DNA of 64,000 nucleotides. Origin: Alphaproteobacteria bacterium. GTDB taxonomy: Bacteria; Pseudomonadota; Alphaproteobacteria; Bin95. The stretch is taken from positions 1,120,001 to 1,184,000 of the forward strand of contig OZ219786.1 in assembly GCA_964291285.2 (NCBI GenBank), read 5' to 3'. The translations under genes and the position numbers were made by a program. Within the stretch, counting starts at the first letter, position 1. Each line of letters starts with the position of its first letter. Positions 5,290 through 63,198 of the stretch are shown here, in pieces. The notes below the pieces were generated by a model. The model ran no database searches, was not told where the DNA came from, and saw only the letters and a list, made by a program, of their open reading frames with translations.

Positions 5290-5730
5290 AGCATGTTGTT
5301 AATTGAATCTTGGTAACAAATCCGTAAATGATTTGATTCCTGAAAATCAGATGCTACATTAGGCTGGACGGGGCGGCGTCCGGGGACCGCTTCGTGCTCC
5401 GCGGCGGCGATGCGAAAAAACCTGAGGAGCTGACAGGGCATATGCGCCCTGCGTTCGGGGTTTCGCGCACGCAGGCACAATCGGGCGCGCGATGCACGCG
5501 CCGCCGCGAAACGCGGGCGGGCACGCCCGCTCGCCCGCGCACATTACACGCAAAGTAGGGTCCCGCTGCTCGGACAAGCCGGCGGCGGAGATGGACGGAT
5601 CGAAACCGGGGCGACAGGAAGAACCTATGCCGAAGATAGAGGACCGCCGAAACCGGATGGAATACCCGCACCCCATGCCCAAACGGGCGACGGGATATGC
5701 GCCGCGCACACGCAGATCATGACATTTCCG
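5290..5730 (+). repeat. Dispersed intergenic element, copy A
   Basis: Shares ordered motifs with copies B-D: TTGATT-N16-TACATT, hairpin, AAAAAACC, GCACAATCGGGCGCGCGA, TACACGCAAAGTAGGGTCCCGCTGC, CATGCCCAAACGGGCGACGGGATATGC, CATGACATTTC; boundaries approximate. Confidence 0.75.
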
Positions 5731-5835
5731 GTGGAGTAGGTCCCTTGGGCCGGACAGTCCGATCGAGAAGACCTGTCAACTCGACAGGGATTGGAAGGAT
5801 CGCACCCATGAGGAAACACCGGGCGCCTCCTTCTC

Positions 5836-7116
5836 TCAGCCTTGCTGAACCTGCCTCGGGTTCGTCGATGCCGAACCCCGGTCCCCGAACTCCCGGCTCG
5901 CGGCGGCGAGCGCCGCCTCCCTGCCGGGGCCGGCGACCGCCTGCAGCGCGAAGGGCATGCCGTTCGCCATGCGTCCGCAGGGGAAGGCGAGCGCCGGCAG
6001 GCCGGTGAGATTGGCGAAGGCCAGCAATTCGGCCTGGTTGGCGGGCGCCTTGCGCGAGCGCGGGAACGGGCCGCAGGGGGCGACCGGCGCAATGATGACG
6101 GCGTCGCCGATGCGTTCGGCAGCATCCTCCCGGATACGCCGGAGCGTCTCCCGCGCCGCCGCCAGGCGCTCGGGCGCCAGCTTCGCGCCGTAGTGGAGGA
6201 AGCCGCGCAATTCGTCGGATGCGCCATCGGGCATGCCGAGCGCCGCGTAGGCTTCCGCCTCTATGACCAGCAGGCCCGCCTTGCGCGCCGCCGAAGGTTC
6301 GTAACCCGGCCAGTCCAGCGCCGGCAGGTCGAGCGCGGGCATGGCGTCCTCGACATCCGCTTCGAGCGGATATCCGTCGAAGGCGGAGAGCCTGACCGGA
6401 TGCCAGCTTCCCTCCGGCGCCGCCGGTTGCGCCGCCATGACCTCAAGCAGCGCCAGCGCGTCGTCGGCCGTGCGTGCAAGCGGCCCCGCATGGTCGAGGC
6501 TCGGCGCGAGCGGCGCCACGCCGTCCAGCGGCACCGCGCCCTGCGTCGGCTTCAGCCCGAAGCAGCCGCAATAGGCCGCCGGCAGGCGTATCGAGCCCAT
6601 GGTGTCGGAGCCGAGCGCGGCAGCCGCAAGTCCGGCCGCCACGGCCGCGCCCGAGCCGCCGCTCGACCCGCCCGCCGTCCAGCCCTCGCGGTGCGGATTG
6701 TGCGTCATGCCCCAATGCGGATTGAAGGTCGTCGTGCCGAAGGCCGCCTCATGCAGGTTAGTCTTGCCGAGCAGCACCGCGCCCGCGTCCCGGAGCCGCG
6801 CGATGACGGGCGCGTCCGCCTCTGCGCGCCTCCCGCCCGGCAGGCCGTTCGCGGTCACGGCGCCGACCATGTCGATATTGTCCTTGACCGCGACGGGCGC
6901 GCCGTCGATGGCGGAAGCCGGCCTGCCCGCCCGCCAGCGCGCCGCGGATGCCGCCGCCGCCTCGCGCGCGGCTTCGGCGGTGACGGCAACATAGGCGTTG
7001 AGCCGGGGGTTCTCGCGCGCGAGCCGGTCGAGATAGGCCTCGGTGACCGCGACGGGATCGAGACGTCCGGCGGCGTAGCCCTCTCGCAGTTCGGACAGTG
7101 AAAGCTCGGTGCTCAT
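5836..7116 (-). CDS. Amidase (amidase-signature family)
   Basis: VAVKDNID, GGSSGGS, GSDTMGSIRLPA. Confidence 0.9.
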   Translation of the reverse strand: MSTELSLSELREGYAAGRLDPVAVTEAYLDRLARENPRLNAYVAVTAEAAREAAAASAARWRAGRPASAIDGAPVAVKDNIDMVGAVTANGLPGGRRAEADAPVIARLRDAGAVLLGKTNLHEAAFGTTTFNPHWGMTHNPHREGWTAGGSSGGSGAAVAAGLAAAALGSDTMGSIRLPAAYCGCFGLKPTQGAVPLDGVAPLAPSLDHAGPLARTADDALALLEVMAAQPAAPEGSWHPVRLSAFDGYPLEADVEDAMPALDLPALDWPGYEPSAARKAGLLVIEAEAYAALGMPDGASDELRGFLHYGAKLAPERLAAARETLRRIREDAAERIGDAVIIAPVAPCGPFPRSRKAPANQAELLAFANLTGLPALAFPCGRMANGMPFALQAVAGPGREAALAAASREFGDRGSASTNPRQVQQG

Positions 7117-8375
7117 GGCGCAGCCTCGCGGCTTCGTTGGCGGCGACCGTGCCACAGGACCAGGAGGCCAGCCAGCAGGTGCAGCCCGGCGAGGCCCAGC
7201 AGCGGCCGGAAATAGGCGCCGGTTGCGTCGAAGAGCCACCCGGTCACGGCGGTCGCGAGGCTTGCCATGACGAACATGCCGGCCGCCGTGAGGCCGTAGG
7301 CCGTGCCATAGCCGTCCTGGCCGAAGCCGTCCACCAGCAGCAGCGGCGGCAGCATCACGATGCAGCCGATGACGAAGCCGGCGATGGCAGAGGCGATGAA
7401 CAGCAATGCAGGCGGCTCCCCGGCCAGCAGCAACAGCAACCCCAACGCCTGGACCAGGTAGCAGCCGGCGGCCAGAACCGGGAGCGGGAAGCGGGCGACC
7501 AGCGCTCCCAGCACGAACCGGCCCAGAGCCGCGCTCACCGACGCAATGCTGACCGCGAAGGCCGCGCCGGAAAGTCCGAGAGGGCCTTGCAGCAGGGGTA
7601 TCTGGTGCATCAGGAACCCCACCTGGGCGCCGAGCGAAAGGCTGCAGGCCGATGCAATGACCCAGAACCGCAGGTCGCCCAGGAACCGCGCCGGCGACGG
7701 CCGGCCCCGTGTGTCCGGCGCGGTCGCCGCGCCCGTTTCCCTCGCGGCCTCCTGTCCTTCGGGCGGCCGGACGAGCAAGAGCGCGACCGGCAGCACCGAG
7801 AGGATGAGCGCCGCGCCGATGCCCGTCATGGCGGCGTCGAAACCGTATCGGGCGGAAAGCCACGCCATCAGTGGCGGCATGACCGCGCCGCCGGCGCTCG
7901 CCCCGGTCAGCGCAATGCCGAGAGCAAGGCCGAGCCGGCGCCTGAACCACGGCACCAGCGCGGCGCTGACCGCCATGGCCGCCAGGCCCGGATAGGCGCT
8001 GCCCATGAGCGCGAAGATCACGAAAAGCTGCCAGCGAGCCTCGAAGAAGCCTGCTTCGAACGCCGCCAGCGCGAAGCAGCCCGCCGCCATGGCCAGCGTG
8101 CCGTACACCACCGTCGGCCGCGCGCCGAAACGGTCGGCAATCCGGCCCATTGCAAGGCTGGCAGCCACGTTCACGAGCCAGAACCCCGCCACGACGCTGG
8201 AAAGGAGAGAGGCCGGCCAGCCGGTCGAGCGGCCCAGCACGGCCATGTAGAACCCGTGGCCGTAAAACCCGACGCCCCAGGCGTAGAACGCCATGACGAA
8301 GCCGCCGGCCGCCACCCACCAGCCGCGGTAGATGCCGCAGGCCGCGCCGTCGTCCGAGTGCAGACCGGATGTCAC
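7113..8375 (-). CDS. MFS transporter
   Basis: About 12 hydrophobic segments, GRIADRFGAR motif A, WFRRRLGLALG. Confidence 0.88.
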   Translation of the reverse strand: MTSGLHSDDGAACGIYRGWWVAAGGFVMAFYAWGVGFYGHGFYMAVLGRSTGWPASLLSSVVAGFWLVNVAASLAMGRIADRFGARPTVVYGTLAMAAGCFALAAFEAGFFEARWQLFVIFALMGSAYPGLAAMAVSAALVPWFRRRLGLALGIALTGASAGGAVMPPLMAWLSARYGFDAAMTGIGAALILSVLPVALLLVRPPEGQEAARETGAATAPDTRGRPSPARFLGDLRFWVIASACSLSLGAQVGFLMHQIPLLQGPLGLSGAAFAVSIASVSAALGRFVLGALVARFPLPVLAAGCYLVQALGLLLLLAGEPPALLFIASAIAGFVIGCIVMLPPLLLVDGFGQDGYGTAYGLTAAGMFVMASLATAVTGWLFDATGAYFRPLLGLAGLHLLAGLLVLWHGRRQRSREAAP

Positions 8376-9724
8376 CGCTCGTCGATCAGTCTCAGCGGTT
8401 TCTGCCGTTCGCGGATTTGCGTGAGGGCGGCCGTTCCGCCAGGCCCGGCGAGCTCGACTGCGACCTGCACGCCGAGGCCCCGCTTCAGACGTTCGGCCAC
8501 CTCCTCCGCCAGCCTCTCGTCAGGCTTTCGCGTCTCTACCATGACCGCCATTTCCTCGCGCCCGGCGGCCCGGAACACGCGGCAGACATATTCCCCGGTC
8601 AGTGCCGCATGATCTGCGAGAAGCGCCCCGATGGCCGTCGGGTAAACATTGATGCCGCGCAGCTTCACCATATTGTCCGACCGGCCCTCGAAGCCCGACA
8701 TGCGGCGGAAGTTGATGCCGGAGGCCGTGTCCGGCGCGGAGAGCGTCGTCAGATCCTTGGTGTCGAAGCGGACGATGGGATAGATGCCGGTCTTGAAAAG
8801 CACGGTCGCGCAAAGATTGCCGGCATGGCCGTCCTCGACCGGCGCGCCGCTCTCCGGGTCGAGCGCTTCCACGAGGTGCGCATCCTCGAAGATGTGCAGG
8901 CCGCTCCGGCTCGGGCTTTCGGCGGCGATGACGCCGGTATCGCCGACCCCGTACCAGTCGTACACCGCCGCGCCGCCCCAGGCATCGGAAACCGCCTGCC
9001 GGTCGTCGCGGCCGAAATGGCCGAGGACCAGGCGGAGCGGAATCGTCAGGCCCTTCTTCTCAGCGGTTTCGGCGAGGTGGCGGACATAGTCGGCGAACCC
9101 GACCAGCACAGTCGCGCCGAGCCGCGCCATGGTCTCCACCTGCTGCTCGGACGGCATGTCGCGCCCGGTGCCGGCGGGAACCAGCAGCGCGTCCGTGAAA
9201 TGCGTCACCGCCTCGCGGACATAATGGCCGCCATTGACCGTGCCGAAGCCGTAAACGGAGTGAACGACATCGTCGTCCCTGAGCCCCATCAGGCGGTAGG
9301 CGCGGGCCAGCAGCAGGTTCTGGATTTCGCGGTCTTCGGCCCCGTAGAACAAAGGTTGCGGCACGCCCGTAGTGCCCGAAGTCGTATGGAAGACGGCGAA
9401 GGCGTTGGCGGCGTTGCGCCCAGCGAAGGTTCCGAAAGGCGGAGCTTCGGCCACGCTCGCCATCAGGTCGTCCTTGGAGAAGGACGGGACCCGCGGCAGG
9501 TCGTCGAGGCCGGCAATGTCGCCCGGCTCCAGCCCCGCCGCGGTCCACCGGTCGCGATAGAACGGCACCTGCCAGGCGCGTTCCATTACGCGGGCGAAGC
9601 GCCGCTCCTGCAGCGCCCGCAGCGCATCGCGCGAAAGCGCCGCCGGCCCGTCCAGGAACGCCCGGCCCATCGGGTAGTCGCCGAGCATGGCCGCGACATC
9701 GAGCCGGCTGAACAGGCCGCTCAC
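8372..9724 (-). CDS. Phenylacetate-CoA ligase (PaaK)-like AMP-forming ligase
   Basis: HTTSGTTG, YDWYGVGD, GRSDNMVKLRGINVYP; GTG start overlapping upstream TGA. Confidence 0.85.
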   Translation of the reverse strand: MSGLFSRLDVAAMLGDYPMGRAFLDGPAALSRDALRALQERRFARVMERAWQVPFYRDRWTAAGLEPGDIAGLDDLPRVPSFSKDDLMASVAEAPPFGTFAGRNAANAFAVFHTTSGTTGVPQPLFYGAEDREIQNLLLARAYRLMGLRDDDVVHSVYGFGTVNGGHYVREAVTHFTDALLVPAGTGRDMPSEQQVETMARLGATVLVGFADYVRHLAETAEKKGLTIPLRLVLGHFGRDDRQAVSDAWGGAAVYDWYGVGDTGVIAAESPSRSGLHIFEDAHLVEALDPESGAPVEDGHAGNLCATVLFKTGIYPIVRFDTKDLTTLSAPDTASGINFRRMSGFEGRSDNMVKLRGINVYPTAIGALLADHAALTGEYVCRVFRAAGREEMAVMVETRKPDERLAEEVAERLKRGLGVQVAVELAGPGGTAALTQIRERQKPLRLIDER

Positions 9725-10581
9725 GGCAGGCAGTCCGCTATGTCCCGCCTGAGCGCCACCCAGACGCCTTCGTGCCCCTCGGCATGGTCGAGGAAGCGCT
9801 CCAGCCAGCCGATGCGGCCGGGGCGCCCGATGATCCGCAGATGCACGCCGAGGCTCATCATTTTCGGCGCCCCCTCGACGCCCTCCCGGTAAAGCCGGTC
9901 GAAGCTCTCCCGCGAATAGTCGAACCATTGCGCCGGCGTATAGGCGGGGTCGGTCCACATCTTCATGTCGTTGGTATCGAGCGCATAGGGCACGACCGCA
10001 ATCCGGCCCGCGGGTTCTTCGTGCCAGAAAGGCAGGTCGTCCGAATAGTCGTCCATGTGGTAGGCGAAGCCTTCCTCGATCAGCAGCCGCCTCGTGTTGT
10101 CGGTGAGCAGATAGCGCGAGAGCCAGCCGCTCGGGCGCGCGCCGGTCGTCCGCTCGATCGAGGCGGCGGCGTCCCTTATGAAGGCGCGCTCCTGCTCCTC
10201 CTCCATGCGGAACTGGTGAACCCAGCGATGCCCGTGCGCGCAGACCTCATGCCCGCCCGCCGTAATCCGCGCGGCGAGATCCGGCGCACGCTCCAGCGCC
10301 ACCGCCGCTGCGGTGAAGGTCGCCTTCAGCCCGCGCTCTTCCAGCAGCCGCATAACCCTGGGCGCACCTGCCCTGATGCCGTAGGCGTAGTTGCTTTCGT
10401 TGCCGTAATTGCGGACCGCGCGCCTCGGGCTGGCGCCCAGCTCGTCTACGGGCTCCGGGAAGGGGTCGCCATCGTCGATGCGGGCCTCCGCGCCCTCCTC
10501 GACATTCACCACCAGGGAGAGCGCGATCCGTGCCCCGCCGGGCCAGGGCGCCCGGCGCCACTCGCTGTCGTTCATTCCCAT
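9721..10581 (-). CDS. Polysaccharide deacetylase family protein (PuuE allantoinase-like)
   Basis: WPGGARIALSLVVNVEEG, HEVCAHGHRW, PYALDTND, HLRIIGRPGR. Confidence 0.85.
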   Translation of the reverse strand: MGMNDSEWRRAPWPGGARIALSLVVNVEEGAEARIDDGDPFPEPVDELGASPRRAVRNYGNESNYAYGIRAGAPRVMRLLEERGLKATFTAAAVALERAPDLAARITAGGHEVCAHGHRWVHQFRMEEEQERAFIRDAAASIERTTGARPSGWLSRYLLTDNTRRLLIEEGFAYHMDDYSDDLPFWHEEPAGRIAVVPYALDTNDMKMWTDPAYTPAQWFDYSRESFDRLYREGVEGAPKMMSLGVHLRIIGRPGRIGWLERFLDHAEGHEGVWVALRRDIADCLP

Positions 10582-10669
10582 TGCCTCTCCGCCGCCCTCG
10601 CTTCCCGCGCCGGCCGTGCTAGGTTTCCGCTGGCGCGATGCCCGCGCAGCATAGAATAAATCGTCCCCG

Positions 10670-11737
10670 ATGGCCGAAGTTCCCCTCAAGAAGCGCCGCA
10701 GGCCTTACACCTACCTGCTGTTGGCCCTGCCGGTGGCGGTGATCGCCGTCGGCGTCAACGAGGCGATCCACTGGTGGCACAATGTCTATGAGCCGGACGC
10801 CCGGGTTGCGGCGGACTTCACCCTGCTCTCCTCCAGCGTCAATGCCCGCGTCGCGGCGATCCGCGTCCGGAAGGGTGACGTCGTCGAGAAGGGCGCGCCG
10901 CTCGCCGACATGGACGATGTCGTCGCCGGGCTCGACCTCCGCGCGCTTGAAGCGGAGCTGGAAAAGCAGAAGGCCCAGCGCGGCCAGGTGGAAGCGGAAC
11001 TCACGCTCTTCAAGGCGGAGCTGGCCGACAAGATCGCCACCGTCGAGGAGACCGTCCGGCTTCTGCGCCTTGAGCTGGCAACGCTGGAGCGCCGCAAGCA
11101 GATCGCGGAGGACAATCTCAAGCGGAACAGGAGACTCGGCCGCGATGTCGTGCCGCAAAGGCGGATCGACGAGGCGCGCGACGAGCTGCTGGAAATGGAG
11201 AGCAAGCTGCGGGATATCCAGACCCGAATCGCCATGAACCTGCGGGAAGCCGCAGAACTCGCCGGCACCGCCGGGCGGGAACGCCTCTTCCAGACCCGGC
11301 TTGCCGTCATCGACCGGGACATCGACAGGACCGCCGTCGAAGTCGAACAGGCGCGCCGCCGGCTGGAGGACATGCATATCCGCGCCCCGGTCCGCGCCGT
11401 CATCGACGAAGTCCATGTCAATCCGGGAGCCTATGTCGAGGACGGCGACCCGGTATTCCTTATCCACGCGCCCGACCGGGTCTGGATCGAGGCCGATATA
11501 GACGAGTCCGACATCCGCCATATAGAGCCCGGCCAGCCGGTCGCCATCGACTTCGACGCCTGGCCCGACGAGACGCTTGAGGGCCGCGTGCGGGCGATCG
11601 GGCGCACGACCGTCAATGGAAACGAGGCGAACGGCCGCAGCGGCGCGCGCAAGATCCCGGTATTCATCGACATTCCGCCGGTGGAGAAGACCGTCTGGCC
11701 GGGAATGCGCGCCACGGTCAACATCCGCATACGCTGA
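10670..11737 (+). CDS. HlyD/EmrA family efflux membrane-fusion protein
   Basis: N-terminal TM, lipoyl-like halves (VRKGDVVEKG, IRAPVRAVI) around a coiled coil, PGMRATV end. Confidence 0.85.
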   Translation: MAEVPLKKRRRPYTYLLLALPVAVIAVGVNEAIHWWHNVYEPDARVAADFTLLSSSVNARVAAIRVRKGDVVEKGAPLADMDDVVAGLDLRALEAELEKQKAQRGQVEAELTLFKAELADKIATVEETVRLLRLELATLERRKQIAEDNLKRNRRLGRDVVPQRRIDEARDELLEMESKLRDIQTRIAMNLREAAELAGTAGRERLFQTRLAVIDRDIDRTAVEVEQARRRLEDMHIRAPVRAVIDEVHVNPGAYVEDGDPVFLIHAPDRVWIEADIDESDIRHIEPGQPVAIDFDAWPDETLEGRVRAIGRTTVNGNEANGRSGARKIPVFIDIPPVEKTVWPGMRATVNIRIR

Positions 11738-13098
11738 TGGACCTCGCGCGCTTCAGTCCGCGCACGATCATGGCGGCGGCGACCGTGGCCATGCTGGTCC
11801 AGCAGGCCTTCTCCTATGTCTGCCAGATCGCGCTGCCGATCCTGGCCGACCGGATCGCCGAGGACTTCGGCATCTCGAGGGCCTGGCTCGGCTTCTACCT
11901 CTTCCTCCAGAATGTGGCCGCGATCATTGCGGCGGTCGGTTGCGGCGGCTTCATCCTGCGCTACGGGCCGCTCCGGGTAAGCCAGGTGGCCCTGCTGCTG
12001 ATGGGGTCGAGCCTTCTGGTGACGGCGTCGGCGCAACTGTGGCTGTTTCCGCTGGGCGCGCTGCTGCTGGGAGCCGCCTCCGTCTCGACGCCCGCAAGTT
12101 CGCACATCCTGGCGCGGGTGACGCCGCTGCGCCTCGCACCGCTGATCTTCTCGATCAAGCAGACGGGGGTGCCCGTCGGCGCGCTTATCGGCGGCCTGCT
12201 GGTGCCTTTCCTGCTGGCGCTGACCTTCTACTCGGACACGCTCGGCATATCGGTCCGGCTCGGACCTTACGGCGCCTCCTTCGTCACCTGCCTGGTCGTC
12301 TTCGCCGTTATGGTCTCGCTGGAGCCGGTGCGGAGCTTCTTCGACGCCGACCGGCGGCCCGACATGAAGATCGCGTTCGGCGACCTGCCGGCAACGCTCA
12401 GGACGGTGCTGGCGATCCGCCCGCTGCGCGACCTGTCATTCGCGGCCTTCGCCTTCGGCGGCCTGCAATCGCTCTTCTCCGGCTTCTTCATCCTCTTCCT
12501 CATCGACGGGCTGGATTACTCCGAGGCCCAGGCCGGCTCCGCCTTCGCCATCGCGTCCTTCTCCGCCGTCTGGGCGCGCATCCTCTGGGGCGCTCTCGGG
12601 GGCGCCGCCGTGTCGCCGCGCATTATCATGGCCGGCATCGGGCTCGTGGCCGGCCTCTCGGCAGTGGCGATCGCGCTCTACGACGTCAACTGGACCTTCT
12701 GGGAAATCACCGCCGTCGCCGTCGTCTTCAACATGACGGCGCTAAGCTGGCACGGCATCCTGCTGGCGGAGACCGCGCGGCTCGCGCCGGAAGGCCAGGT
12801 CGGCGGCGTCACCGGCGGCGTGCTGGCGTTCACCTCCATCGCCATGATGATCTATCCGGCGCTTTACGGCGGCCTGCTCGCCTGGACAGGCTCCTATGGC
12901 ATCGGCTTCATCCTGGGCGCGGTCCCCTCCTTCGCCGCCTTCGTCATCTTCGTCAATCCGCCGGTGGACGGCGCGTGGACCGGCCTTGCCGCACGGTTCG
13001 GCCGCCAGCTCCTCTCAAGGCGCGCGCTCGCCCGCGCCGGGGCCGTGACCGCGCTCGGCTCCGCACTTGGCGTCGCGCTCAACGCGGCGGGCTGGTAA
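11737..13098 (+). CDS. MFS transporter
   Basis: Multi-TM protein, IFSIKQTGVPVG motif; TGATG coupling with the upstream gene. Confidence 0.85.
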   Translation: MDLARFSPRTIMAAATVAMLVQQAFSYVCQIALPILADRIAEDFGISRAWLGFYLFLQNVAAIIAAVGCGGFILRYGPLRVSQVALLLMGSSLLVTASAQLWLFPLGALLLGAASVSTPASSHILARVTPLRLAPLIFSIKQTGVPVGALIGGLLVPFLLALTFYSDTLGISVRLGPYGASFVTCLVVFAVMVSLEPVRSFFDADRRPDMKIAFGDLPATLRTVLAIRPLRDLSFAAFAFGGLQSLFSGFFILFLIDGLDYSEAQAGSAFAIASFSAVWARILWGALGGAAVSPRIIMAGIGLVAGLSAVAIALYDVNWTFWEITAVAVVFNMTALSWHGILLAETARLAPEGQVGGVTGGVLAFTSIAMMIYPALYGGLLAWTGSYGIGFILGAVPSFAAFVIFVNPPVDGAWTGLAARFGRQLLSRRALARAGAVTALGSALGVALNAAGW

Positions 13099-13891
13099 CG
13101 CGGTCGAGGAAGGACAGCAGCGGCGCGTTGAAAGCCTCCGGCGCCTCGACATTCGAGAAATGGCGCAGCCCCGGCAGCATGACCAGCTCGGCCCCGGAAA
13201 TACCGTCGCGGAGCTCCTCCGCGCGCGCGGGCGGCGTCACCGGGTCGTCGCCCGCGCCCAGCACCAGGACCGGGCAGGAGATCCGGTCCAGCCGGTCCAG
13301 ATAGTCGAGCTCGGCGACGGCCGAGGTGCCCGCCAGATAGCCGGTAATGTCCGTCGCGTTGAAGACATCGCGAATGGCCGCGTAGTCCGGCCCGGCGGCG
13401 TCCGCATAGTCGTCGGAGAACCAGAGTTTGTGGGTCATGTCCCACACCGGCGCCATGCCCGACGCGCGCACGACCGCCTGGCGCTCGACCACCCACCGGC
13501 GGTACCAGGGCGTCGCGCGCGCCATCGTGTTGCAGAGCGCGGCGGCGCGCACGCGGTCGGGATGCCCGATGGCGACGCCCTGAGCGATCATGCCGCCGGT
13601 GGAAATGCCGACGAATGTCACCTGCCCGATCCCGAGCGCGTCCATGACGCCCACGGCATCGGCGACGAAGCCGTCCAGCGAATAGGGCCCTTCCGGGGCA
13701 GCGCTGGCGCCGTGGCCGCGCCAGTCGTAGAGCAGCAGCCGGTAGCGGCCGGAAAGCGCCGGCGCCTGCCGGTCCCATATGCGGTGGCTGGTGCCCATGG
13801 CGTGCGCCATCATCACGACGGGGCCGTCCACCGGTCCTTCCCAGCGATAGAAGAAGCGGTTCCCGCCGGTCTCGACATACCCCTCCGTCAC
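13079..13891 (-). CDS. Alpha/beta hydrolase (3-oxoadipate enol-lactonase-like)
   Basis: YDWRGHGAS, GISTGG nucleophile elbow, HFSNVEAP. Confidence 0.82.
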   Translation of the reverse strand: MTEGYVETGGNRFFYRWEGPVDGPVVMMAHAMGTSHRIWDRQAPALSGRYRLLLYDWRGHGASAAPEGPYSLDGFVADAVGVMDALGIGQVTFVGISTGGMIAQGVAIGHPDRVRAAALCNTMARATPWYRRWVVERQAVVRASGMAPVWDMTHKLWFSDDYADAAGPDYAAIRDVFNATDITGYLAGTSAVAELDYLDRLDRISCPVLVLGAGDDPVTPPARAEELRDGISGAELVMLPGLRHFSNVEAPEAFNAPLLSFLDRVTSPPR

Positions 13892-15003
13892 CGGTCGATC
13901 CTGTAGGCTTCGACTCTGTCCGGGTCGAGGCGGATGCCGAAGCCTGGCCGGTCCGGCACATGCAGGCGGCCGTCCCTGAGTTCGGGCGGGTCGAGCCACA
14001 TGCCGGGCCAGATCGGGTCGCGCTCCGGATCCGCAAAGCACTCGACAGCAAAGCTGTTGGAGGCGCCGGCCAGCAGGTGGAGCGCGATCTGCGGCTCCTC
14101 ATGGTGGGTCATCCGCACATCGTGCAGCCGGCAGACCGCAGCCGCATCCAGCCACGCCGTCGGCCCGCCCGCTTCCGAAGCGTCGATATTGACCATATCG
14201 ACGGCCCCCGCCTCCACCAGCCGGCGCGCGCCGTGCGCGGTGATTTCGCTCTGGCCGGCATTGACGGGAATGGACGTCTTGTTGCGCAGGGCCGCCATTG
14301 CCGACACGTCGTCGAACCAGTGGCACGGTTCCTCGAACCAGGCGATGTCGAGCGGCTCCACCAGCCGCGCAAAGCGTTCGGCATCGCGCAGGTCCCAGCC
14401 CCGGTTCGCGTCCACTGCCAGCATGAAGTCCGGTCCGGCGCCCTCCCGGCAGACCGTCACGCGCTCCGCGTCCTCCTCGGGCGAAAGGCCGCCCACCTTC
14501 ACCTTGCAGCCCGCCATGCCCCATTCCTGCAACTGGCGCATTTCCCGGCCCAGATCGTCCAGCGTCTTGCCCTCCTCGTAGTAGCCTCCGATGGAGAAGA
14601 TCGGGAGCGAGTCGCGCGCGCCGCCCATCAGGCGCGCGACGCTGACGCCGTAGATGCGCCCAAGGCCGTCCCAGACCGCGCTGTCCACGCAGGCAATCGC
14701 CTCCAGCAGCAGCTTGGGAGCCATGGCCGCGCCGGGCACGCGGGCGAACATCCCGTCATAGTGCCGGCGCCAGTCGCGCAGGTCCCTGCCCACCACCAGC
14801 GGCGCCAGGACGTCTTCCACCAGCCGCGCGACCTCGCGGCCTTCGGAGCGGTTGTCGCCGTTATAGACTTCCGCAGTCGGTCCGTCCCTGACCGTCAGCC
14901 GGGTGACGACCGTGCAGCGGGTCGGCACTGCATAGGTGCTGCCGCCGAAGACCCGCGACAGCGGAATTTCTATCGGTATCGCTTCGATTCGCTCGACGAT
15001 CAT
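13888..15003 (-). CDS. Mandelate racemase/muconate lactonizing enzyme family protein
   Basis: KVKVG (KxK), VDANRGW, WFEEP, GQSE metal ligands, PDRPGFGI. Confidence 0.9.
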   Translation of the reverse strand: MIVERIEAIPIEIPLSRVFGGSTYAVPTRCTVVTRLTVRDGPTAEVYNGDNRSEGREVARLVEDVLAPLVVGRDLRDWRRHYDGMFARVPGAAMAPKLLLEAIACVDSAVWDGLGRIYGVSVARLMGGARDSLPIFSIGGYYEEGKTLDDLGREMRQLQEWGMAGCKVKVGGLSPEEDAERVTVCREGAGPDFMLAVDANRGWDLRDAERFARLVEPLDIAWFEEPCHWFDDVSAMAALRNKTSIPVNAGQSEITAHGARRLVEAGAVDMVNIDASEAGGPTAWLDAAAVCRLHDVRMTHHEEPQIALHLLAGASNSFAVECFADPERDPIWPGMWLDPPELRDGRLHVPDRPGFGIRLDPDRVEAYRIDR

Positions 15004-15074
15004 GCAGGCCGCCTCCGGCAGACAGGGAACGGAGCGGAGTTTGCAAGCTTGCATCCCCCCTGTCTAATGGCCGC

Positions 15075-16370
15075 ATGAGCGGGGCGGCCAAAGCGGGGAT
15101 CGATCTGGGGACCTGCTACCGGTTTTTCATTCCGCTCATCTTCATGACCGAACTCAACATGATCTCGAAATCGGTCATCAATGCGTTCCTCGCGCGAATG
15201 GACGACAGCAGCATCGTGCTGGCGGCCTTCCACAGCGCCTTCACGCTCTACTACTCGATCGCCAGCGGCACCGAGGTCTGCTCCCTCCTGACGCTCTCCT
15301 ACATGCGCACCCGCCGGGCCCTCGGCCACCTGCTGCGGTTCATGGTCGTCATTGTCGCGATTCCCTGGGCCGTGGCACAATTGCTGGCTTTCACGCCGCT
15401 CGGCGACCTCGCATTCCGGATATTGTTCGGCATCAGCGACGCCGCGGTCGCCGAGGCGAAGACGGCAACCTTCCTGCTGTCGTTGAGCGCGCCGATCCTG
15501 ATTTGCCGGTCGATCGCCTTCGGCCTGCTGATGATCGGCCAGAAAACGATCTTCATCACCTGGGCGACGGTCGCGCGGCTGGGTTCGCTCGCCGGCTCGC
15601 TCGTCGTGCTGCCGCTCGTGCTGGAAGGCGCCGCGGTCGGCGCCGGAGCGCTGGTCTTCGCCATGTTCAGCGAGACAGTCGTCGCCGTCTTCTTCGCCCG
15701 GCGCATCTATGCCGGCCTGCCCGAGCACGGCGAACGGCCGCCGAGCGTCAGGGCGCAATGGCGGTTTTCCTGGCCGCTCATGCTGAACTCCTCGGCCGAG
15801 ATGGGCATGGTCTTCGCCATCAGCGTGTTTCTCGGCCGCCTTCCCGATCCCGACCTGGCGCTCGCCGCATTCGCAATCGTGTACGGTCTGGCGGGTCTGA
15901 TGCTGAGCCCGCTGCGCAACCTTGTGCAGAGCGCCCAGACGCTTGTGCGCCACGCGGACGACCGGCGGGTGATCCTGAAATTCGCCGGGCAGCAGATGCT
16001 GTTCTTCGGGGCCGTGGCCGTGGTCCTGTTTCACACGCCGCTGGACCGCCTGGTGCTTTCCGAAGCCATGGGCCTCGAACCGGTGCTCGAGGCTTATTGC
16101 GCGCCAGCCATGCATATCGCCTTCGTCATGGCCGCCTTCTGGGGCCTGTCTGCTGTCTTCCGCGGCCTTCTGGCGGGTGCGAGGGTCACGCGCGCACTCG
16201 CTGTATCGGGCGTCGCCCGCGTGGCCGCCGCGGCACTCGTCGCAGCAGCGGGGCTTCTGATGCCCGGTGGCAACGGCGCCGTCATCGGCCTTGCCGCCTG
16301 GATGGCTGGCTATGGCGCGGAGGCCGCCATTCTGGCGCTCCGGGTGCGCCGGCTCGGACCGCCGGGCTAG
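15075..16370 (+). CDS. MATE/ANKH-like (MOP superfamily) membrane transporter
   Basis: About 12 TM in two related halves (FFIPL...LAAF and FSWPL...LAAF). Confidence 0.6.
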   Translation: MSGAAKAGIDLGTCYRFFIPLIFMTELNMISKSVINAFLARMDDSSIVLAAFHSAFTLYYSIASGTEVCSLLTLSYMRTRRALGHLLRFMVVIVAIPWAVAQLLAFTPLGDLAFRILFGISDAAVAEAKTATFLLSLSAPILICRSIAFGLLMIGQKTIFITWATVARLGSLAGSLVVLPLVLEGAAVGAGALVFAMFSETVVAVFFARRIYAGLPEHGERPPSVRAQWRFSWPLMLNSSAEMGMVFAISVFLGRLPDPDLALAAFAIVYGLAGLMLSPLRNLVQSAQTLVRHADDRRVILKFAGQQMLFFGAVAVVLFHTPLDRLVLSEAMGLEPVLEAYCAPAMHIAFVMAAFWGLSAVFRGLLAGARVTRALAVSGVARVAAAALVAAAGLLMPGGNGAVIGLAAWMAGYGAEAAILALRVRRLGPPG

Positions 16371-16494
16371 ATGTGGAGCGTAGTCGGCACCGATGGTGCC
16401 GCCTTCCGGTGCGGGCCGGAAACCGCCGCCCCGGCAGGCGGCCGCTATCCGCATCCCGGCCTCGCACCCGCCGCCGGAACGGGAACACCCATCG

Positions 16495-17060: not shown

Positions 17061-17227
17061 CCGGCTTCATTGCGCGATTCAATCTGCAAGGCTCGAATGC
17101 AGGGCCCAGCCTCCGTTCCAGCGGCAGCTTCAGCGGTTGAGCCTGCTCTCCACCGGCTGCGGCAGTGGCGCGAGTCAGGGCCGGACCCCGATCAAGTCCG
17201 GGGCGACGAGCGCTTGCGCCGGCCGCC

Positions 17228-19108: not shown

Positions 19109-19112
19109 GCGC

Positions 19113-46748: not shown

Positions 46749-46851
46749 TTATACCGTCACCGGCCTTAAAAACGGCACCGAATATACCTTCCAAATTCGA
46801 GCATCTAACGGCCCGAACGGGCCTTGGTCGGATGAAAAATCCGCGACTCCC

Positions 46852-49800: not shown

Positions 49801-52800
49801 GGGGAGGCCGGCGTTTACAGAGACTGGACCGGCATCCCCGGCAGCGGCGCGTCCACTATGAGCTATACGGTGCCCGGCCTCGACAACGGCACGCCCTACG
49901 CCTTCAAAGTTCGCGCCGTGAACGCCAGCGGCAACGGCACGGAGTCCGATGAGGCGACCGCCACGCCGCTGGCGGTTCCGGCAAAGCCGGCGGGCTTCGC
50001 CGCGACGGCGGGCGCCGGGGAAGTCGTGCTGTCATGGGACGACCCGGACGACCCCACAATCACCGGCTGGGAATACAACCAGCGGCGCGCAGGCGGGGAA
50101 TTCGAGGTGGACTGGACCCTTATCCTCGGCAGCGGCGCCGCCACGACGAGCTACAGGGTCACCGGCCTCGAAACCGGCGCGACCTACGGCTTCAAGGTCC
50201 GCGCCGTCGCCGGCGGACTTGCGGGCGCGGAGTCGGACGAGGAGACCGTAACCGTCACGCTGCCGCCGGTCCCGGCCAAACCGGCGGACCTGACGGCGAC
50301 GGCGGGCGACCGGGAGGTTACGCTGACATGGGACGATCCGGGCGACCCGTCGATCTCCGGCTGGCAATACCGCTATGGGCCGGCGGGCGAGTTCGGCGAC
50401 TGGACCGGCATTCCCGACAGCGATGCGGGCACGACCGGCTACACGGTGACCGGCCTCAAATACGGCGCAAGCTACGTATTCAGGGTCCGCGCCCTCAATG
50501 CCGGCGGCAACGGCAAGCAGTCCGAGGACGCAACCGCAACCTCGCTTCCGGCGATGCCGACGGGCTTCACCGCGACGGCGGGAGACGGGAAAGTGCTGCT
50601 GGAATGGGACGATCCCGGCGACCCGTCGGTTACCCACTGGGAATACAGGCAGCGGCAAGCCGATGAGCCGTTCGGAAACGATTGGACGGTTCTCCCGCAG
50701 GACGCCACGCCGACCCGCTTCACCGTTCCGGGCCTCGAAATCGGCGCGTCATACGCTTTCAAGCTTCGCGCTGTGAATGCCAGCGGCGCAGGCGCCGAGA
50801 CGGACGAGGTTGCCGCGACCCTGCTGCAGGTTCCCGCCAAGCCGGAGGAATTTACGGTCATACCGGGCGACGGGCTGGCGGCATTGCGATGGCAGAGCCC
50901 GGAAAACCCGGCCGCCGGCTGGCAATACCGGCACAGGACCGAGGGCGGCGAGTTCGGAGACTGGACCGATATGCCGCAAACCGCCGACGATGACGGATTT
51001 ACCGGCTACACCGTGACCGGGCTCGAAAATGGCGTCACCTATTTCTTCCAGGTTCGCGCGGTGGGTGCATCCGGCGCCGGCCCGCCCTCCGAAACGGCAA
51101 GAGCGTCACTGGAACCGGCGCTGGAGCGACCCACCGGCCTCAGGGCGACCCCCGGTTACGGGCAGGTCGTTCTGACTTGGGAAGCCGCGCGCGATCCGAA
51201 CGTCCGCTGGCAGTATGCCTGCTGGATCAACGGCGAGGATATGTGCAATCCCAGAATCGATGATTCTCCGATGGAAAATATACCGAATCCCTGCCGCAAG
51301 TTGCCTTGGATCGATATTCCCGGCAGCAGCGCGGCGACCGTCCGGCACACGGTACCGGGCCTTGCCAGCGGAATCGCTCACACGTTCCAGATTCGAACGG
51401 CTGTGGGCGACAAGTGCAGCGACGAATCGAATGTCGCTTACGCAACGCCGAAAGCGGCAGCGACACCGGCGGAGCGGACGACGGTCAAGGCTGTTCTGGC
51501 GGGCCTCGCGGGCCATGTGGCGGTGGGCGCGAACGCCGTGATCGGGGCGCGCTTCTCCGCCGGTCCGGCTCAGTCGAGTGTCGTTCTCGCCGGGCGGGAG
51601 GTTCCTCTGTTCGCGCGCGGCGGCGAAGAACGGATGCGAGTGCCGCCCGGCGGCGCACCGAAGGCAACCGTCCGGGGCATAAGCGGCCGGGAATTGCTGC
51701 AAGACAGCTCGTTCCAGGTCGCGCTCGGCCCGCCCGGAGGGGAAGGCTTCCCGCAATGGTCGCTCTGGCACCGGGGCGACCTGACGCGTTTCGAGGGCTC
51801 CGCCGGCGCCGGGTCGCGCTACGGAGGCCGCCTGTTGTCGGCCTGGTACGGCGTCGATATGCGGTGGGACGGGCGGTGGCTGGCGGGCGCGGCGCTGGCC
51901 CGCAGCAAAGCGGAAGTGGACTATGCCGGCGGCGGCGGCTCCGGTTTGCTGAGGACCGTCCTCGACAGCGTGCATCCCTATCTGCTGCGGCAGTTCGAGG
52001 AGGGCGGAACGGCCTGGGTTACGGTCGGCAGCGGACGGGGAACGATCGGGAACGAGACGGCGGGCCGGGATATCGAGACCGCGGATGCCGAACTGGCGAC
52101 GGCCTCCACCGGTTTCCGCGCCCCGCTGCCGGCGTTCCGCGGCCTGAAACTGTCCGCCTCCGGAGCGGCCGGCTTCGCACGGTTCGAAGCCGACGGGGAC
52201 GCGCAGACTGCTATCGGCTCGCTTTCCGCCTCCACGAACCGCCAGAGCCTCGGCGCCGAGGCCGCGCTGGAAGATGGGGACACCGCCTACCGCGCATCCC
52301 TGTCGCTGCGCCGCGACGGCGGCGACGGCGCGAACGGCATCGGCCTCGAATTGGCGAAAGGCGTCGAAGCGGCGCTGCCGTCGCTGTCCGGACACGCGGC
52401 GGTCCGTACACGGTGGCTGGTCTGGAATTCCAACGGCGAATACCGGGAATTCGGCGTTGCGGCCGCAGTTCGCCGCCCGGCCGGACCGGACGGCCGCGGC
52501 CTTTCATGGTCGTTGTCGGTTGCGCAGGGGACGGCGGACGGCGCGGCCGGAGGGCCCGAGTCGTTCTGGCGCGAGGACGCTCCGGAACGGGGCGGAGGCG
52601 AGGACGCGTTCTCGCTGGATTTGAGCGCCGGCTGGGGGCTCGTTTCCCGCGGGAGCACGTTTACGCCGCGCGCCGCATTCGGCCTCGCCGGCACGAATGA
52701 CCGAAGGCTCGCGCTCGGACTCGATATCGGGCCGCTGTCCGGCCCCAGGCTGAAACTCGGCGCCGAGCGCCGCATTCCGCATGCGGGCAGTCCCGAAAGC

Positions 52801-52833
52801 CGCATTACCGCCGCCGTGCAGTTCAGATTCTAG
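46852..52833 (+). CDS. Intact 3' remnant ORF of the FN3 protein (16 FN3 domains plus barrel, no signal peptide)
   Basis: PxKPxG...LxW...WQY...YTVxGLxNGxxYxFxxRAVN repeated 16 times. Confidence 0.8.
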   Translation: MPTAPEKPTGFSVESGNLKVTLTWNDPGNDTISKWQYKYKTTGDYGSWIDIPGSTAGTTRHIVSMPVNDTVHTFRIRAVNDIGEGAESDEASATPEARAPEEPSGLIALTGDAQITLEWTDPSDASILKWQYAYRTAGNYGDWADIPGSGAATTRHTIGELVNGTTYTIKIRAVNDVGDGPESDGVSATPLSVPAKPAGFAVTAGDALAVLEWDNPLNPTITGWEYSYRTTGSYSGWTGIPGSDAATTAHTVPDLENGVEHTFRLRAVNASGPGAESGGMAATPRPVPAKPAGLQAEAGNTQARLSWTDPGNDSISGWQYSLKTTGDYGAWTNIPGSGPSTVRYTVTGLANNVLHAFRIRAVNGSGAGTESDEASATPREGLPGKPTGFEAEAGDGEVVLTWDDPDDSSIQGWQYRSGEASGDYSRHPVNIPGSGAKTVRHVVTGLENGKTYFFILRATNAANGKWSDERSAAPRSLRPAAPTGLKAAPGDASVALRWDDPGDATITGWQYAVKTMAGFGAWMDISGSDAATTAYTATGLDNGEKHVFKLRAVNGHGAGAESAEVSATPVPVPVKPAGFEAAPRDGKVALTWNDPGDATITGWQYAVKTTGAYGPWTGIAGSGAETTAHTVSPLDNGTPYAFKLRAVNASGNGAESDEATATPLAVPAKPTGFTATAGDGEVSLTWTDPGNSSIIGWEYSIGEAGVYRDWTGITGSGASTMSYTVPDLDNGAPYAFRVRAVNPSGNGAESDEATATPLAVPAKPAGFTATAGDGQVSLQWADPMDATITGWQYAVETADGFGPWTGIPDSDAETAAYTVAPLDNGTPYAFKVRAVNLSGNGAESDEATATPIPVPAKPAGFTATVGDGQVSLSWTDPGNSSIVSWEYSIGEAGVYRDWTGIPASGASTTSYTVPGLDNGTPYTFKVRAVNPSGNGAESDEATATPLAVPAKPADLTATAGDGEITLSWTDPGNSSIIGWEYSIGEAGVYRDWTGIPGSGASTMSYTVPGLDNGTPYAFKVRAVNASGNGTESDEATATPLAVPAKPAGFAATAGAGEVVLSWDDPDDPTITGWEYNQRRAGGEFEVDWTLILGSGAATTSYRVTGLETGATYGFKVRAVAGGLAGAESDEETVTVTLPPVPAKPADLTATAGDREVTLTWDDPGDPSISGWQYRYGPAGEFGDWTGIPDSDAGTTGYTVTGLKYGASYVFRVRALNAGGNGKQSEDATATSLPAMPTGFTATAGDGKVLLEWDDPGDPSVTHWEYRQRQADEPFGNDWTVLPQDATPTRFTVPGLEIGASYAFKLRAVNASGAGAETDEVAATLLQVPAKPEEFTVIPGDGLAALRWQSPENPAAGWQYRHRTEGGEFGDWTDMPQTADDDGFTGYTVTGLENGVTYFFQVRAVGASGAGPPSETARASLEPALERPTGLRATPGYGQVVLTWEAARDPNVRWQYACWINGEDMCNPRIDDSPMENIPNPCRKLPWIDIPGSSAATVRHTVPGLASGIAHTFQIRTAVGDKCSDESNVAYATPKAAATPAERTTVKAVLAGLAGHVAVGANAVIGARFSAGPAQSSVVLAGREVPLFARGGEERMRVPPGGAPKATVRGISGRELLQDSSFQVALGPPGGEGFPQWSLWHRGDLTRFEGSAGAGSRYGGRLLSAWYGVDMRWDGRWLAGAALARSKAEVDYAGGGGSGLLRTVLDSVHPYLLRQFEEGGTAWVTVGSGRGTIGNETAGRDIETADAELATASTGFRAPLPAFRGLKLSASGAAGFARFEADGDAQTAIGSLSASTNRQSLGAEAALEDGDTAYRASLSLRRDGGDGANGIGLELAKGVEAALPSLSGHAAVRTRWLVWNSNGEYREFGVAAAVRRPAGPDGRGLSWSLSVAQGTADGAAGGPESFWREDAPERGGGEDAFSLDLSAGWGLVSRGSTFTPRAAFGLAGTNDRRLALGLDIGPLSGPRLKLGAERRIPHAGSPESRITAAVQFRF
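48560..49980 (+). repeat. Near-identical 282-bp tandem FN3 coding repeats
   Basis: DPGNSSI(I/V)xWEYSIGEAGVYRDWTGI occurs three times at spacings of 564 and 282 bp, interleaved with a second unit type. Confidence 0.85.
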
Positions 52834-62406: not shown

Positions 62407-62653
62407 CGGTTTCCGTCAGCGACCGGCCGCCGGGTGCTTTTCAGTGTCCGGCGCATTGCAGAGGGCCGGTGTCATCCGGCCCTCTGTCCAGGGGCGTTGC
62501 CTGAACGGCAGCAGTGCTTTCGCAACGCTCACCGCCCGCCTCCCCGCCATGCCGTAACCTGTCACCCGTCTATCCGGTCCGTACCCTTCTGACCCCCCTC
62601 CCGCCGGGGGTTTCCGGGCGTGCGCGGCCTCTTCCGTTCGCTCTTCCTCCTGC

Positions 62654-62733
62654 GAGCAAAACATGAACAATTTCCAATATTTTTGACTTTCGTTCGTATT
62701 TTGATCTTGACATCTGGCGGATTGTGGTATGAT
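62654..62733 (+). promoter_or_regulatory. Putative sigma70-like promoter with two LexA-like boxes
   Basis: TTGACA 62707-62712, TATGAT 62728-62733; GAGC-N7-GAAC 62654-62668 and GTTC-N7-GATC 62692-62706. Confidence 0.5.
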
Positions 62734-62954
62734 GGTCCCCGGGGAAGCGGACTCCGGAGCCGCGTCCCCGGGTGCCGCGCGGCCGGCGGCGCCGCCTTCG
62801 AAAAAATACCCGCAATACCGACGGGAGGGGTGCGCCCTCTGCCTCGCGCGCGCAATCAGGCGTGCGAACCGCGCCGGCGCCGACGCGCAGGCGCAGGTGC
62901 GCACGATACGCGCGAAAAAGGGACCCGCCGCTCCCGGACCGGAAGGAGACAGGA

Positions 62955-63149
62955 ATGACCGCAACCGACCCCCGACCCGCACTGGCGGCGATGCTGGCCG
63001 CCAGGCTCGCGCCCGCCGCCGAAGCCCTCGCCGCTGCCTATGCCGAAGACCTGAACCCGGAGCCCCCGCCCCCCGACGACCGCGCCTGCGCCGAATGCCA
63101 CCGCCCCCTGCCCGACAGCGCCCGAAGCACGGAACATGACAAAACATGA
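62955..63149 (+). CDS. Putative 64-aa protein inside repeat copy D (CxxC, ends EHDKT)
   Basis: AAGGAG/AGGA RBS, Ala-rich helix, Pro tract, CAECH. Confidence 0.45.
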   Translation: MTATDPRPALAAMLAARLAPAAEALAAAYAEDLNPEPPPPDDRACAECHRPLPDSARSTEHDKT

Positions 63150-63198
63150 CATTCCATGACATGCAGGGACCCCTCGATACGCGGCTGGCGCCGCTACC

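Follow-up and report, generated by a model that had tools for sequence, protein, structure and literature searches.

Dispersed intergenic cassettes of one alphaproteobacterial genus end in phased CATGACA arrays and, in complete copies, encode a small-terminase-like protein

The 64-kb stretch of contig OZ219786.1 analyzed here (positions 1,120,001 to 1,184,000; hereafter, the window) belongs to a 6.13-Mb alphaproteobacterial genome of 68% GC in five contigs (denoted G000) and contains four related intergenic stretches, copies A to D, which an earlier note made from the sequence had described as an unannotated family of dispersed elements. In our reading, these stretches are degraded copies, with internal deletions, of a cassette found in a single genus; complete cassettes encode a small-terminase-like protein that likely binds, in a pac-like fashion, the array of CATGACA boxes at their end. 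No published match to the family, to the CATGACA array, to multicopy orphan small-terminase cassettes or to CATGACAAAACATGACA was found in the libraries and literature searched, a coverage that excluded subscription journals.

All four copies are present at the positions given in the earlier note, and A, C and D share the motif order that it proposed: an AT-rich head, a GC hairpin, an A-run followed by CC, GC(G/A)CAATC(A/G)GGCG, GATACGCGCGAA..AGGGTCCCGCCGC, a variable middle, and CATGACA boxes. In the leader alignment, copy B lacks the CAATC block, again as claimed. The plural does not hold for copy A, which keeps a single box (5718-5724). The window contains 14 CATGACA boxes, compared to 4.5 +/- 1.9 expected (none of 100 shuffles reached 14), and 12 of these lie inside the four copies. 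The reported likeness between the tails of A and B extends without gaps over 63 nucleotides (nt) at 83% identity (5666-5728 and 16558-16620), and copies C and D share two gap-free segments, one of 71 nt at 86% identity (25092-25162 and 62847-62917) and one of 32 nt at 100% (24917-24948 and 63130-63161).

The most complete short cassette is copy D (62640-63161, plus strand), with TTGACA at 62707-62712 and, after a spacer of 15 nt, TGgTATGAT (-10-like hexamer at 62728-62733), followed by a hairpin (62738-62775), an A-run around 62803, CAATCAGGCG around 62853, GATACGCGCGAAAAAGGGACCCGCCGC ending around 62932, and boxes at 63135, 63145 and 63155. More than 20 other copies match it over 380-484 nt, with identities of 80-91%. 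The 64-codon remnant open reading frame (ORF) of copy D (62955-63149, plus strand) stops at the TGA of the second box; its first ~48 residues are the N-terminus of a 193-219-amino-acid (aa) 'MTATD...' cargo protein (see below), after which the deletion begins. On the opposite strand, the A-runs of the copy D leader (62809-62825 and 62922-62940) appear as two terminator-like sites, each a hairpin with a T-run, compared to 0.6 +/- 0.8 in shuffled sequences; these could block transcription coming from behind the cassette.

Copy C (minus strand) is a single copy that was cut at 25190/25191 and 28467/28468 by an insertion sequence (IS) of the IS110 family. Its 5' part (28468-28660) comprises the head (TTGACT ... 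TAGAAT), the 5' hairpin and the leader up to GGACAGGAGAG, and matches, at 98% identity, the head of a copy elsewhere in the genome that has not been interrupted (G000:C3:2018664-2018855). The 3' part (24917-25190) contains the rest of the leader (the CAATCAGGCG block and GATACGCGCGAAACTAGGGTCCCGCCGC), a 33-codon remnant ORF, and boxes at 24964-24958, 24943-24937, 24933-24927 and 24923-24917.

In copy A (5290-5724, plus strand), a decayed cassette, the head elements TTGATT (5333-5338) and TACATT (5355-5360) precede a hairpin around 5366-5400. An A-run (5414-5422) and CAATCGGGCG (5477-5486) come next, then TAGGGTCCCGCTGC, with its end at 5569, and, from 5674, the tail motif shared with copy B; by blastn, copy A matches about 60 loci in the genome. 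Copy B (16371-17060, minus strand) has its head around 17060-16990 and boxes at 16568-16562, 16558-16552, 16525-16519 and 16515-16509, plus a degenerate GATGACA, and extends by an extra tail of ~135 nt past the boxes to 16371, at the stop codon of the convergent ORF 15075-16370. Both copies point at the 3' ends of convergent genes, as the earlier note had remarked, namely, an amidase-like ORF ending at 5836 for copy A and the 15075-16370 ORF for copy B. Between uvrC and the head of copy B lies a ~110-nt repeat (17102-17209) with many copies in the sister genomes G004 and G009; it represents another family of repeats, characterized by GTCACCCCGGAC...GGGGTCC hairpins, which occupies the same sites between genes.

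Directly after the boxes of copy B, there is a GTTC-N7-GTTC motif (GTTCGATGGGTGTTC, 16483-16497, minus strand) of the same form as the direct repeat upstream of lexA in G000 (GAAC-N7-GAAC). SOS control of the cassettes was considered and rejected because this motif follows the boxes in only four B-type copies. The motif shows no genome-wide enrichment (111 found, 107 expected), and the TTGTTC of the cassette heads has no second half-site at N7.

A blastn search of G000 with modules of copies B and D showed that the four copies in the window are a sample of a family of about 100. The search yielded 102 leader cores, of which 90 are followed on the same strand by a CATGACA cluster within 3 kb downstream, mostly 55-640 nt away; 12 cores have no boxes, and 17 box clusters occur without a core. 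The cores are distributed over the five contigs (22, 28, 42, 8 and 2) and over the two strands (50 and 52); the median gap between them is 33 kb. The genome contains 901 boxes, compared to about 316 expected, and 121 clusters of two or more; the spacing of neighboring boxes is exactly 10 bp in 252 of 324 cases. In B-type cassettes, two plus three boxes surround a spacer of ~26 nt.

The repeated unit measures 0.4-1.5 kb and contains a single ORF behind a conserved leader of ~230 nt. Alignment of ten long copies, together with 92 heads, places at the 5' end TTGTTC, an AT-rich stretch with GAAATAATTC, TTGaca-N15-TGnTAtgAT and the GC hairpin; in the leader, CGCGCCGGCGCG with the A-run, GACGGGAGAcGTGCGCCCTGCG, CGCGCGCGCAATCAGGCGCGCGAACCGCGCCGGCG, a variable GC-rich spacer and GATACGCGCGAAAcAGGGTCCCGCCGC; and in the 3' part, a ribosome-binding site, the ORF and the boxes. 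Homology between the ten long copies starts in the AT-rich head and stops at the last box; in many copies, it reaches ~20 nt further, to an N6-(T/G)GGAG(T)GGGCC motif. The ten long copies show no inverted match between their 5' and 3' ends, and the cargo encoded by the longer relatives is not a transposase, in agreement with the earlier observation that terminal inverted repeats and a transposase are missing. Three boxes spaced by 10 nt put ATGA, a start codon overlapping a stop codon, in all three frames, and for this reason every cargo ORF ends within the array. At ~10 loci, extra modules of ~200 bp are stacked past the first array, each with a strong ribosome-binding site, a 12-codon ORF and its own boxes.

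The AT-rich head is promoter-like. A codon-position GC test, which was correct on 8 of 8 known genes of the window, was applied 200-650 nt past the last array. Among the 90 units, the DNA beyond the array is co-directional coding sequence in 39, convergent in 40, and neither in 11. This orientation is random with respect to the downstream genes; thus, the units are not promoters of their neighbors, and the statement in the earlier note that they are not simple gene promoters is borne out. A general function as mobile promoters is ruled out by the same count.

The alternative put forward in the earlier note, a structured non-coding RNA or a leader plus small ORF, fared differently in its two parts: the RNA part was not supported, given no Rfam match and a weak fold, whereas the leader-plus-ORF part fits copies C and D, with their cargo remnants. 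At the gathering score, Rfam matches in the window are limited to three tRNAs, and there are none at E <= 1 in loci L112, L113, L114 and L117. For 31 leaders from several species, RNAalifold gave a global structure of only 7 weak pairs at -3.8 kcal/mol. Three hand-drawn leader hairpins are paired in 87% of 414 cells, compared to 38-53% when the hairpins are slid along the alignment, and cells changed on both sides number only 10, a value reached in 19 of 500 shuffles. The strong conservation of the leader is that of primary sequence, which suits a protein-binding or DNA-level role as well as an RNA role.

A check for longer copies carrying a gene, suggested in the earlier note, was successful: ten copies carry a small-terminase-like gene, and others carry a second cargo. 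In the ten copies, ~1.05 kb separates the leader from the boxes and encodes a protein of 329 aa (336 aa in one copy; one copy is frameshifted). Residues 11-70 of this protein match Pfam Terminase_2 (PF03592; E-value 1.2e-10, 42.6 bits, cut-off 26.1), the protein matches phrog_51 at 4.4e-12, and the solved DNA-binding domains of small terminases (4zc3, 2cmp and 3zqp) match it at E 0.009-0.018. The C-terminal two thirds are acidic and have no match. Among the nine intact copies in G000, the median ratio of nonsynonymous to synonymous substitution rates (dN/dS) is 0.28 at a dS of 0.10; compared to the copy at the same site in the sister genome G007, dN/dS is about 0.35, with 0.16 for residues 1-110 and 0.48 for the rest. 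The terminase-like gene is under purifying selection and functional. The G007 copy is no nearer to its same-site counterpart (dS 0.57) than to other G000 copies (dS 0.57-0.67), and therefore the copies within a genome evolve in concert, by gene conversion or turnover.

The second cargo is an acidic protein of 193-219 aa that starts with MTATD, is unrelated to the first (full length at L113 516-1097 and L114 598-1257) and has no Pfam or PHROG match. At one locus, a DNA methyltransferase-like ORF takes the place of the cargo. Many short copies open with the first codons of either cargo gene, after which a deletion follows, a pattern that fits internal-deletion derivatives.

The genus comparison included G000 and 16 sister genomes, with 24 genomes of other genera as an outgroup. 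The triple-box pattern has 91 occurrences in G000 and 7-129 per genome in 13 of the 16 sister genomes, the other three having none; it was found in none of the 24 outgroup genomes, and the reversed control yielded nothing in any genome. In a scan of one genome per species, the pattern was found, among the matches listed, almost only in metagenome-assembled genomes of uncultured Alphaproteobacteria. Terminase_2 matches are present in 12 of the 17 genus genomes, with 2-12 genes in each of eleven sister genomes; the three array-less genomes have none, nor does G008 (7 arrays), and Pfam finds none in G014 (31 arrays, 460 contigs), where pieces of terminase-like genes lie at contig ends.

Viral contigs contain the triple-box pattern in 12 stretches, none of which has the leader motif and 11 of which have a GC content of 26-57%; a search of these contigs with the terminase-like protein yielded only three distant relatives, at 34% identity. 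On one viral contig of 65.5% GC (L182:2830-3040), a ACATGACAAG-type triple box phased at 10 bp marks the 3' end of a small ORF resembling an excisionase-type helix-turn-helix protein, and a ParB-like/methylase-like ORF follows (both names assigned by eye).

Empty sites, another check proposed in the earlier note, were found at two orthologous positions. The site of copy B was ancestrally the junction of the transporter-like gene (15075-16370) and a convergent NfeD-like gene. In G007, G010, G011, G015, G013 and G014, this site is empty and the two stop codons abut; G006 carries an orthologue of copy B plus ~250 nt of other repeats, and other DNA is inserted in G016, G012, G003 and G008. The second position is that of a terminase cassette between two convergent genes (G000:C2:1363.6-1365.0 kb), which G007 also has, with the same left junction, and at least the start of which is present in G014. 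This site is pristine, with 7-21 nt between the stop codons, in G009, G012, G016, G002 and G005; ~50 nt separate the stops in G008 and G010, and other repeats occupy the site in G006. Therefore, units have been gained at positions that are empty in relatives. Within G000, no paralogous empty site was detected for 80 cassettes whose flanks were compared with the genome by blast.

The left and right flanks of copy A are found at separate loci in G007, each ending at the box, and thus the arrays also mark rearrangement breakpoints. Contigs of four DNA runs were compared with positions 3000-20000 of the window: X1-X3 contain the same strain, with contigs that break at boxes; over this range, no trustworthy joint skips a cassette, all the listed joints having sides shorter than 35 nt.

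The cassettes are frequent targets of insertion sequences. The IS110-family element that splits copy C (25191-28467) encodes its transposase at 27421-28452 (plus strand; DEDD_Tnp_IS110, 4.5e-24; Transposase_20, 5.3e-20) and itself harbors an IS5-family element (25258-27406) with a DDE transposase ORF (25358-27157; DDE_Tnp_1, 1.9e-13) and CTAG on both sides. The end of the IS110-family element, ...CCGGAGAGATACAAG, occurs 12 times in G000, and five of these occurrences, copy C included, are at the same leader position, GAGAG^GTGCG. Sequence-guided targeting is known for IS110-family elements, and the clustering fits it. The IS5-family element is present in about 50 copies in G000, with YTAR as the target, and has struck the leader sequence ..GCGCGAA(T/C)TAG^GGTCCC at least 15 times, in either orientation. 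IS5-family insertions at this (C/T)TAG, a rare site in the leader, truncate cassettes, which explains most of the cores lacking boxes. Another IS5-family copy, inverted relative to the one in copy C, begins 37 nt past the last box of copy D and extends beyond the end of the window (63198-64000): 26469-27237 and 63232-64000 form a 100% inverted repeat, a DDE_Tnp_1 remnant occupies 63312-63995, and the end motif is at 63198. A 138-nt segment of the IS5 region (27235-27372) recurs at 46614-46751.

A third element, of 1.25 kb, has terminal inverted repeats of 29-33 nt (TGGAGTGGGCCCC...GGACAGTTT) and a 3-bp duplication (e.g., L174:49-1298 and L175:46-1295); from its size, its TG...CA ends and this duplication, it appears to belong to the IS3 family. 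It is located exactly 6 nt past the last box in at least ten cassettes, and its terminal repeat resembles the native post-box motif of the cassettes. In the window, a solo end of this element, TGGAGTAGGTCCCTTGGGCCGGACAGTCC..., remains as an inverted-repeat remnant 7 nt after the box of copy A (5732-5789, plus strand).

Outside the genus, distant homologues of the terminase-like protein were detected in 8 of 300 other genomes of the class, with 26-35% identity over the N-terminal third. In one of these, G110, the single homologue is encoded directly before a large-terminase gene, as in an ordinary phage operon, an arrangement that points to a phage origin of the terminase-like gene. Another, G293, from a different alphaproteobacterial family, encodes four dispersed terminase-like proteins (about 33% identity). 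In all three readable copies, AAAGCC[CG]ACA decamers spaced by 10 bp begin no more than a few nucleotides past the stop codon (3, 3 and 2 decamers; L224, L225 and L226, about 1870-1960 in gene orientation). The two-decamer pattern occurs 29 times in G293, in about 22 arrays on at least 14 contigs, with none in the reversed control, so that arrays outnumber genes here as they do in the genus. A diverged protein accompanied by a different decamer, at the same position and in the same phase, provides the strongest indirect support for a cognate pair of protein and site. A third genome, G033, contains seven dispersed units of ~0.95 kb, 93-99% identical, that combine a promoter-like palindrome (TAGTCCTAGGACTA...TATAAG) with a 292-aa terminase-like ORF (L217, L219-L223).

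Contig C1 of G000 contains a T7-like particle gene cluster that includes an S24-type repressor, portal, major head protein, tail protein and large terminase. We scanned 15 ORFs of a 20-kb stretch, 13 of them within or directly beside the cluster, and found no small terminase among these; two ORFs (122 and 130 aa; L173:8461-8829 and 8826-9218) remained unassigned. The portal family is represented in 16 of the 17 genus genomes, including the array-less G003 and G013, and therefore the particle cluster is independent of the cassettes. One cassette (G000:C1:989789-990095; L173:5790-6100, minus strand) lies 3.5 kb from the T7-like portal gene, and a gene of 924 aa (phrog_28604) is predicted to start at the ATG of the last box of this cassette.

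Small terminases bind pac, according to a paper (PMC11260489) that also describes the P1 pac site as containing seven hexanucleotide repeats and reports that chromosomal pac-like sites direct P22 packaging and transduction. In the mechanism we propose, the cassette-encoded small-terminase-like protein would bind the 10-bp-phased CATGACA array at the cassette end. We accept such pac-like binding with moderate confidence. Recombination between copies would likely contribute by homogenizing the family within a genome, and spread to other cells could plausibly proceed by packaging followed by recombination into the recipient chromosome. The tests gave no clear sign of the hallmarks of classical transposition; recombination between copies is evident. 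The family would persist as selfish DNA derived from a phage packaging module. The earlier suggestion of a self-contained transcribed unit or a non-autonomous mobile element of an unrecognized class is partly supported: the units are self-contained, and the window copies are best read as internally deleted, non-autonomous members of such a class.

Several observations weigh against this interpretation. Only co-occurrence and position connect the protein to the array, and the sister genomes are kin, so that counts of co-occurrence are not independent. Only the N-terminal third of the 329-aa protein matches terminase families, the profile match ending at position 61 of 141, and nothing connects the second cargo with packaging. 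None of the ten gene-bearing copies has a large terminase, portal or capsid gene beside it; the sole large-terminase (TerL) locus found in G000 by PHROG and tblastn searches is in the T7-like cluster, at least about 600 kb from the cassette genes or on another contig, and PF03237 and PF03354 have no match in this genome (other TerL families were outside the search). The head is imperfect as a promoter: a scan for canonical sigma-70 sites found none in copies B and D, and a relaxed TTGnnn-N14-18-TAnnnT pattern is present in no more than 27 of the 92 heads, as against 4 of 2000 random windows; among these 27 heads, 23 have an unusual 15-nt spacer and 24 an extended -10 TGn. At both filled sites compared, the junctions are embedded in other small repeats, with no exact ends and no clear target duplication. 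Finally, no phased array is visible in the G033 units.

A more far-reaching version of the proposal holds that the ~100 pac-like arrays, served in trans by the ten cassette-borne small-terminase copies, are packaging beacons that mark the chromosome for domesticated T7-like particles, with the cassettes spreading by transduction and homologous recombination. We regard this extension as tentative and rather doubtful.

Among the explanations that dispense with packaging, movement of the cassettes as non-autonomous elements by a transposase acting in trans, for which the 1.25-kb IS3-like element would be the best candidate, is the first to be weighed. Many copies have, past the boxes, an N6 spacer and then (T/G)GGAG(T)GGGCC or AGGGGGTCCCGCC, resembling the TGGAGTGGGCCCC... 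end of this element, and yet no inverted copy of the motif is present at the 5' end, where homology starts in the AT-rich head. Presence/absence polymorphism of the cassettes speaks for such movement; no clear target duplication was seen at cassette ends, and the search for paralogous empty sites of 80 cassettes was negative. The fixed 6-nt distance at which the element, with its 3-bp duplication, follows the last box in at least ten cassettes, as well as the ~200-bp mini-modules that open with the same motif and are stacked at that position, also accord with trans-mobilization, but a simpler reading is that the element is attracted to a sequence like its own end. Insertion toward sequences resembling their own end is a property of IS3-type elements. 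Altogether, we consider trans-mobilization unlikely.

The cassettes could instead be host regulatory modules, in which the phased TGTCATG/CATGACA boxes are sites for a host transcription factor and the head with the leader gives rise to small regulatory RNAs or peptides. With 10-bp phasing, the boxes lie along a single face of the helix; their sequence does not vary across 13 species, and the leader hairpins are retained in most cells (87%). The reverse strand of the arrays resembles OmpR/PhoB-type direct-repeat sites (Pho boxes), but these are spaced by 11 bp, not 10. A regulatory role is also hard to reconcile with the random orientation relative to neighboring genes (39 co-directional, 40 convergent, 11 none), the many copies facing gene 3' ends, the empty orthologous sites in sister species, the many copies truncated or struck by insertion sequences, and the lack of arrays in three species of the genus, which together make this explanation improbable.

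Equally improbable is that the cassettes are the remains of a prophage or phage satellite, with no present activity, whose number rose through recombination and segmental duplication. Most copies are truncated, all four in the window among them, rearrangement breakpoints coincide with arrays (as for the copy A flanks in G007), and concerted evolution indicates frequent recombination between copies. Inert debris, however, would not account for ten nearly identical terminase-like genes with a dN/dS of 0.28 in G000 and 2-12 such genes in eleven sister genomes, for the conservation of box sequence and head architecture across species, for ~100 separate intergenic sites without duplicated flanks, or for the parallel system in another family (G293). 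A family of structured non-coding RNA genes with incidental ORFs, suggested by leader blocks strongly conserved across species and by the retention of three hairpins well above the slid controls, is very improbable, given the lack of an Rfam match, the consensus of 7 pairs and only -3.8 kcal/mol, two-sided changes in just 10 cells with 19 of 500 shuffles equal, and a cargo ORF under purifying selection with a clear protein-family match.

Two other features of the window were noted. A 1993-aa ORF (46852-52833) consists of about 15 tandem repeats of 282 bp (94 aa), 60-90% alike, and is probably a giant repetitive surface protein. Adjacent ORFs at 24507-24812 and 23091-24488 (minus strand) match the first and last parts of Pfam UGSC, respectively, and represent either a split or frameshifted gene or a two-gene arrangement.

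If the pairing of protein and array is correct, the cassettes, which make up roughly 1% of the genome across a whole genus, would be a class of dispersed elements built from a phage packaging module rather than a transposase. Such a pairing would provide a testable means of selecting chromosomal DNA for transfer by particles and would account for the rearrangement breakpoints and the insertion-sequence hot spots. Should the beacon version hold, the cassettes would play in transduction the part that uptake sequences play in DNA uptake and would represent a new means of selfish spread without a transposase, and the G293 parallel would make the strategy widespread. The G293 decamer is a natural experiment in which covariation of protein and site can test binding without culture. 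Even on a modest reading, the units break assemblies, seed at least three families of insertion sequences, and mislead gene callers through promoter-like sites and short ORFs.

Among the known systems closest to the cassettes is the SPP1/SF6-type small terminase (PDB 4zc3, 2cmp and 3zqp) with its pac site. Shared features are the N-terminal helix-turn-helix domain of the cassette protein, the clustering of short repeated sites beside its gene, as pac sites lie in or beside terS, and the distant single-copy relative directly before a large terminase in G110. The cassette gene differs in being an orphan, present in ten copies with ~90 gene-less derivatives at separate chromosomal sites, and in having a long conserved leader upstream and an acidic C-terminal two thirds that matches nothing. 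The P1 pac site resembles the arrays in that several copies of a 6-7-nt motif form one or two groups, as in the 2 + 3 boxes of B-type cassettes. The chromosomal pac-like sites of P22 provide a precedent for dispersed sites that could start packaging, but for P22, nine chance look-alikes are reported, whereas the cassette sites belong to a repeated unit with about 100 copies per genome.

Staphylococcus aureus pathogenicity islands (SaPIs) and other phage-inducible chromosomal islands (PICIs) are likewise non-phage chromosomal elements with a terS-like gene, whose small terminase redirects the packaging motor of a helper. PICIs exceed 5 kb, whereas the cassettes are 0.4-1.5 kb long, exist in ~100 copies rather than one or few, and, in the aligned long copies, contain no integrase, repressor or replication gene within the repeated unit. 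With miniature inverted-repeat transposable elements (MITEs), repetitive extragenic palindromes and bacterial interspersed mosaic elements (REP/BIME), and Rhizobium-specific intergenic mosaic elements (RIME), the cassettes share high copy number, intergenic location, random orientation, decay and service as landing pads for insertion sequences. They are, however, much longer, with a promoter-like head and an ORF and without terminal inverted repeats, and the full-length copies encode a predicted DNA-binding-type protein instead of a transposase, the transposases inside them belonging to separate insertion sequences. Integron cassettes differ as well: there is no attC-type inverted end, and the 3' end of the cassette is a direct repeat phased at 10 bp, found at ~100 dispersed loci. 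DNA uptake sequences and uptake signal sequences (DUS/USS) of Neisseria and Haemophilus are single 9-12-nt motifs recognized by the uptake machinery. They are a functional analogy under the beacon version only, as many dispersed short signals that bias DNA into gene exchange; the cassette signal, in contrast, would be an array, read by a cassette-encoded protein and acting at packaging.

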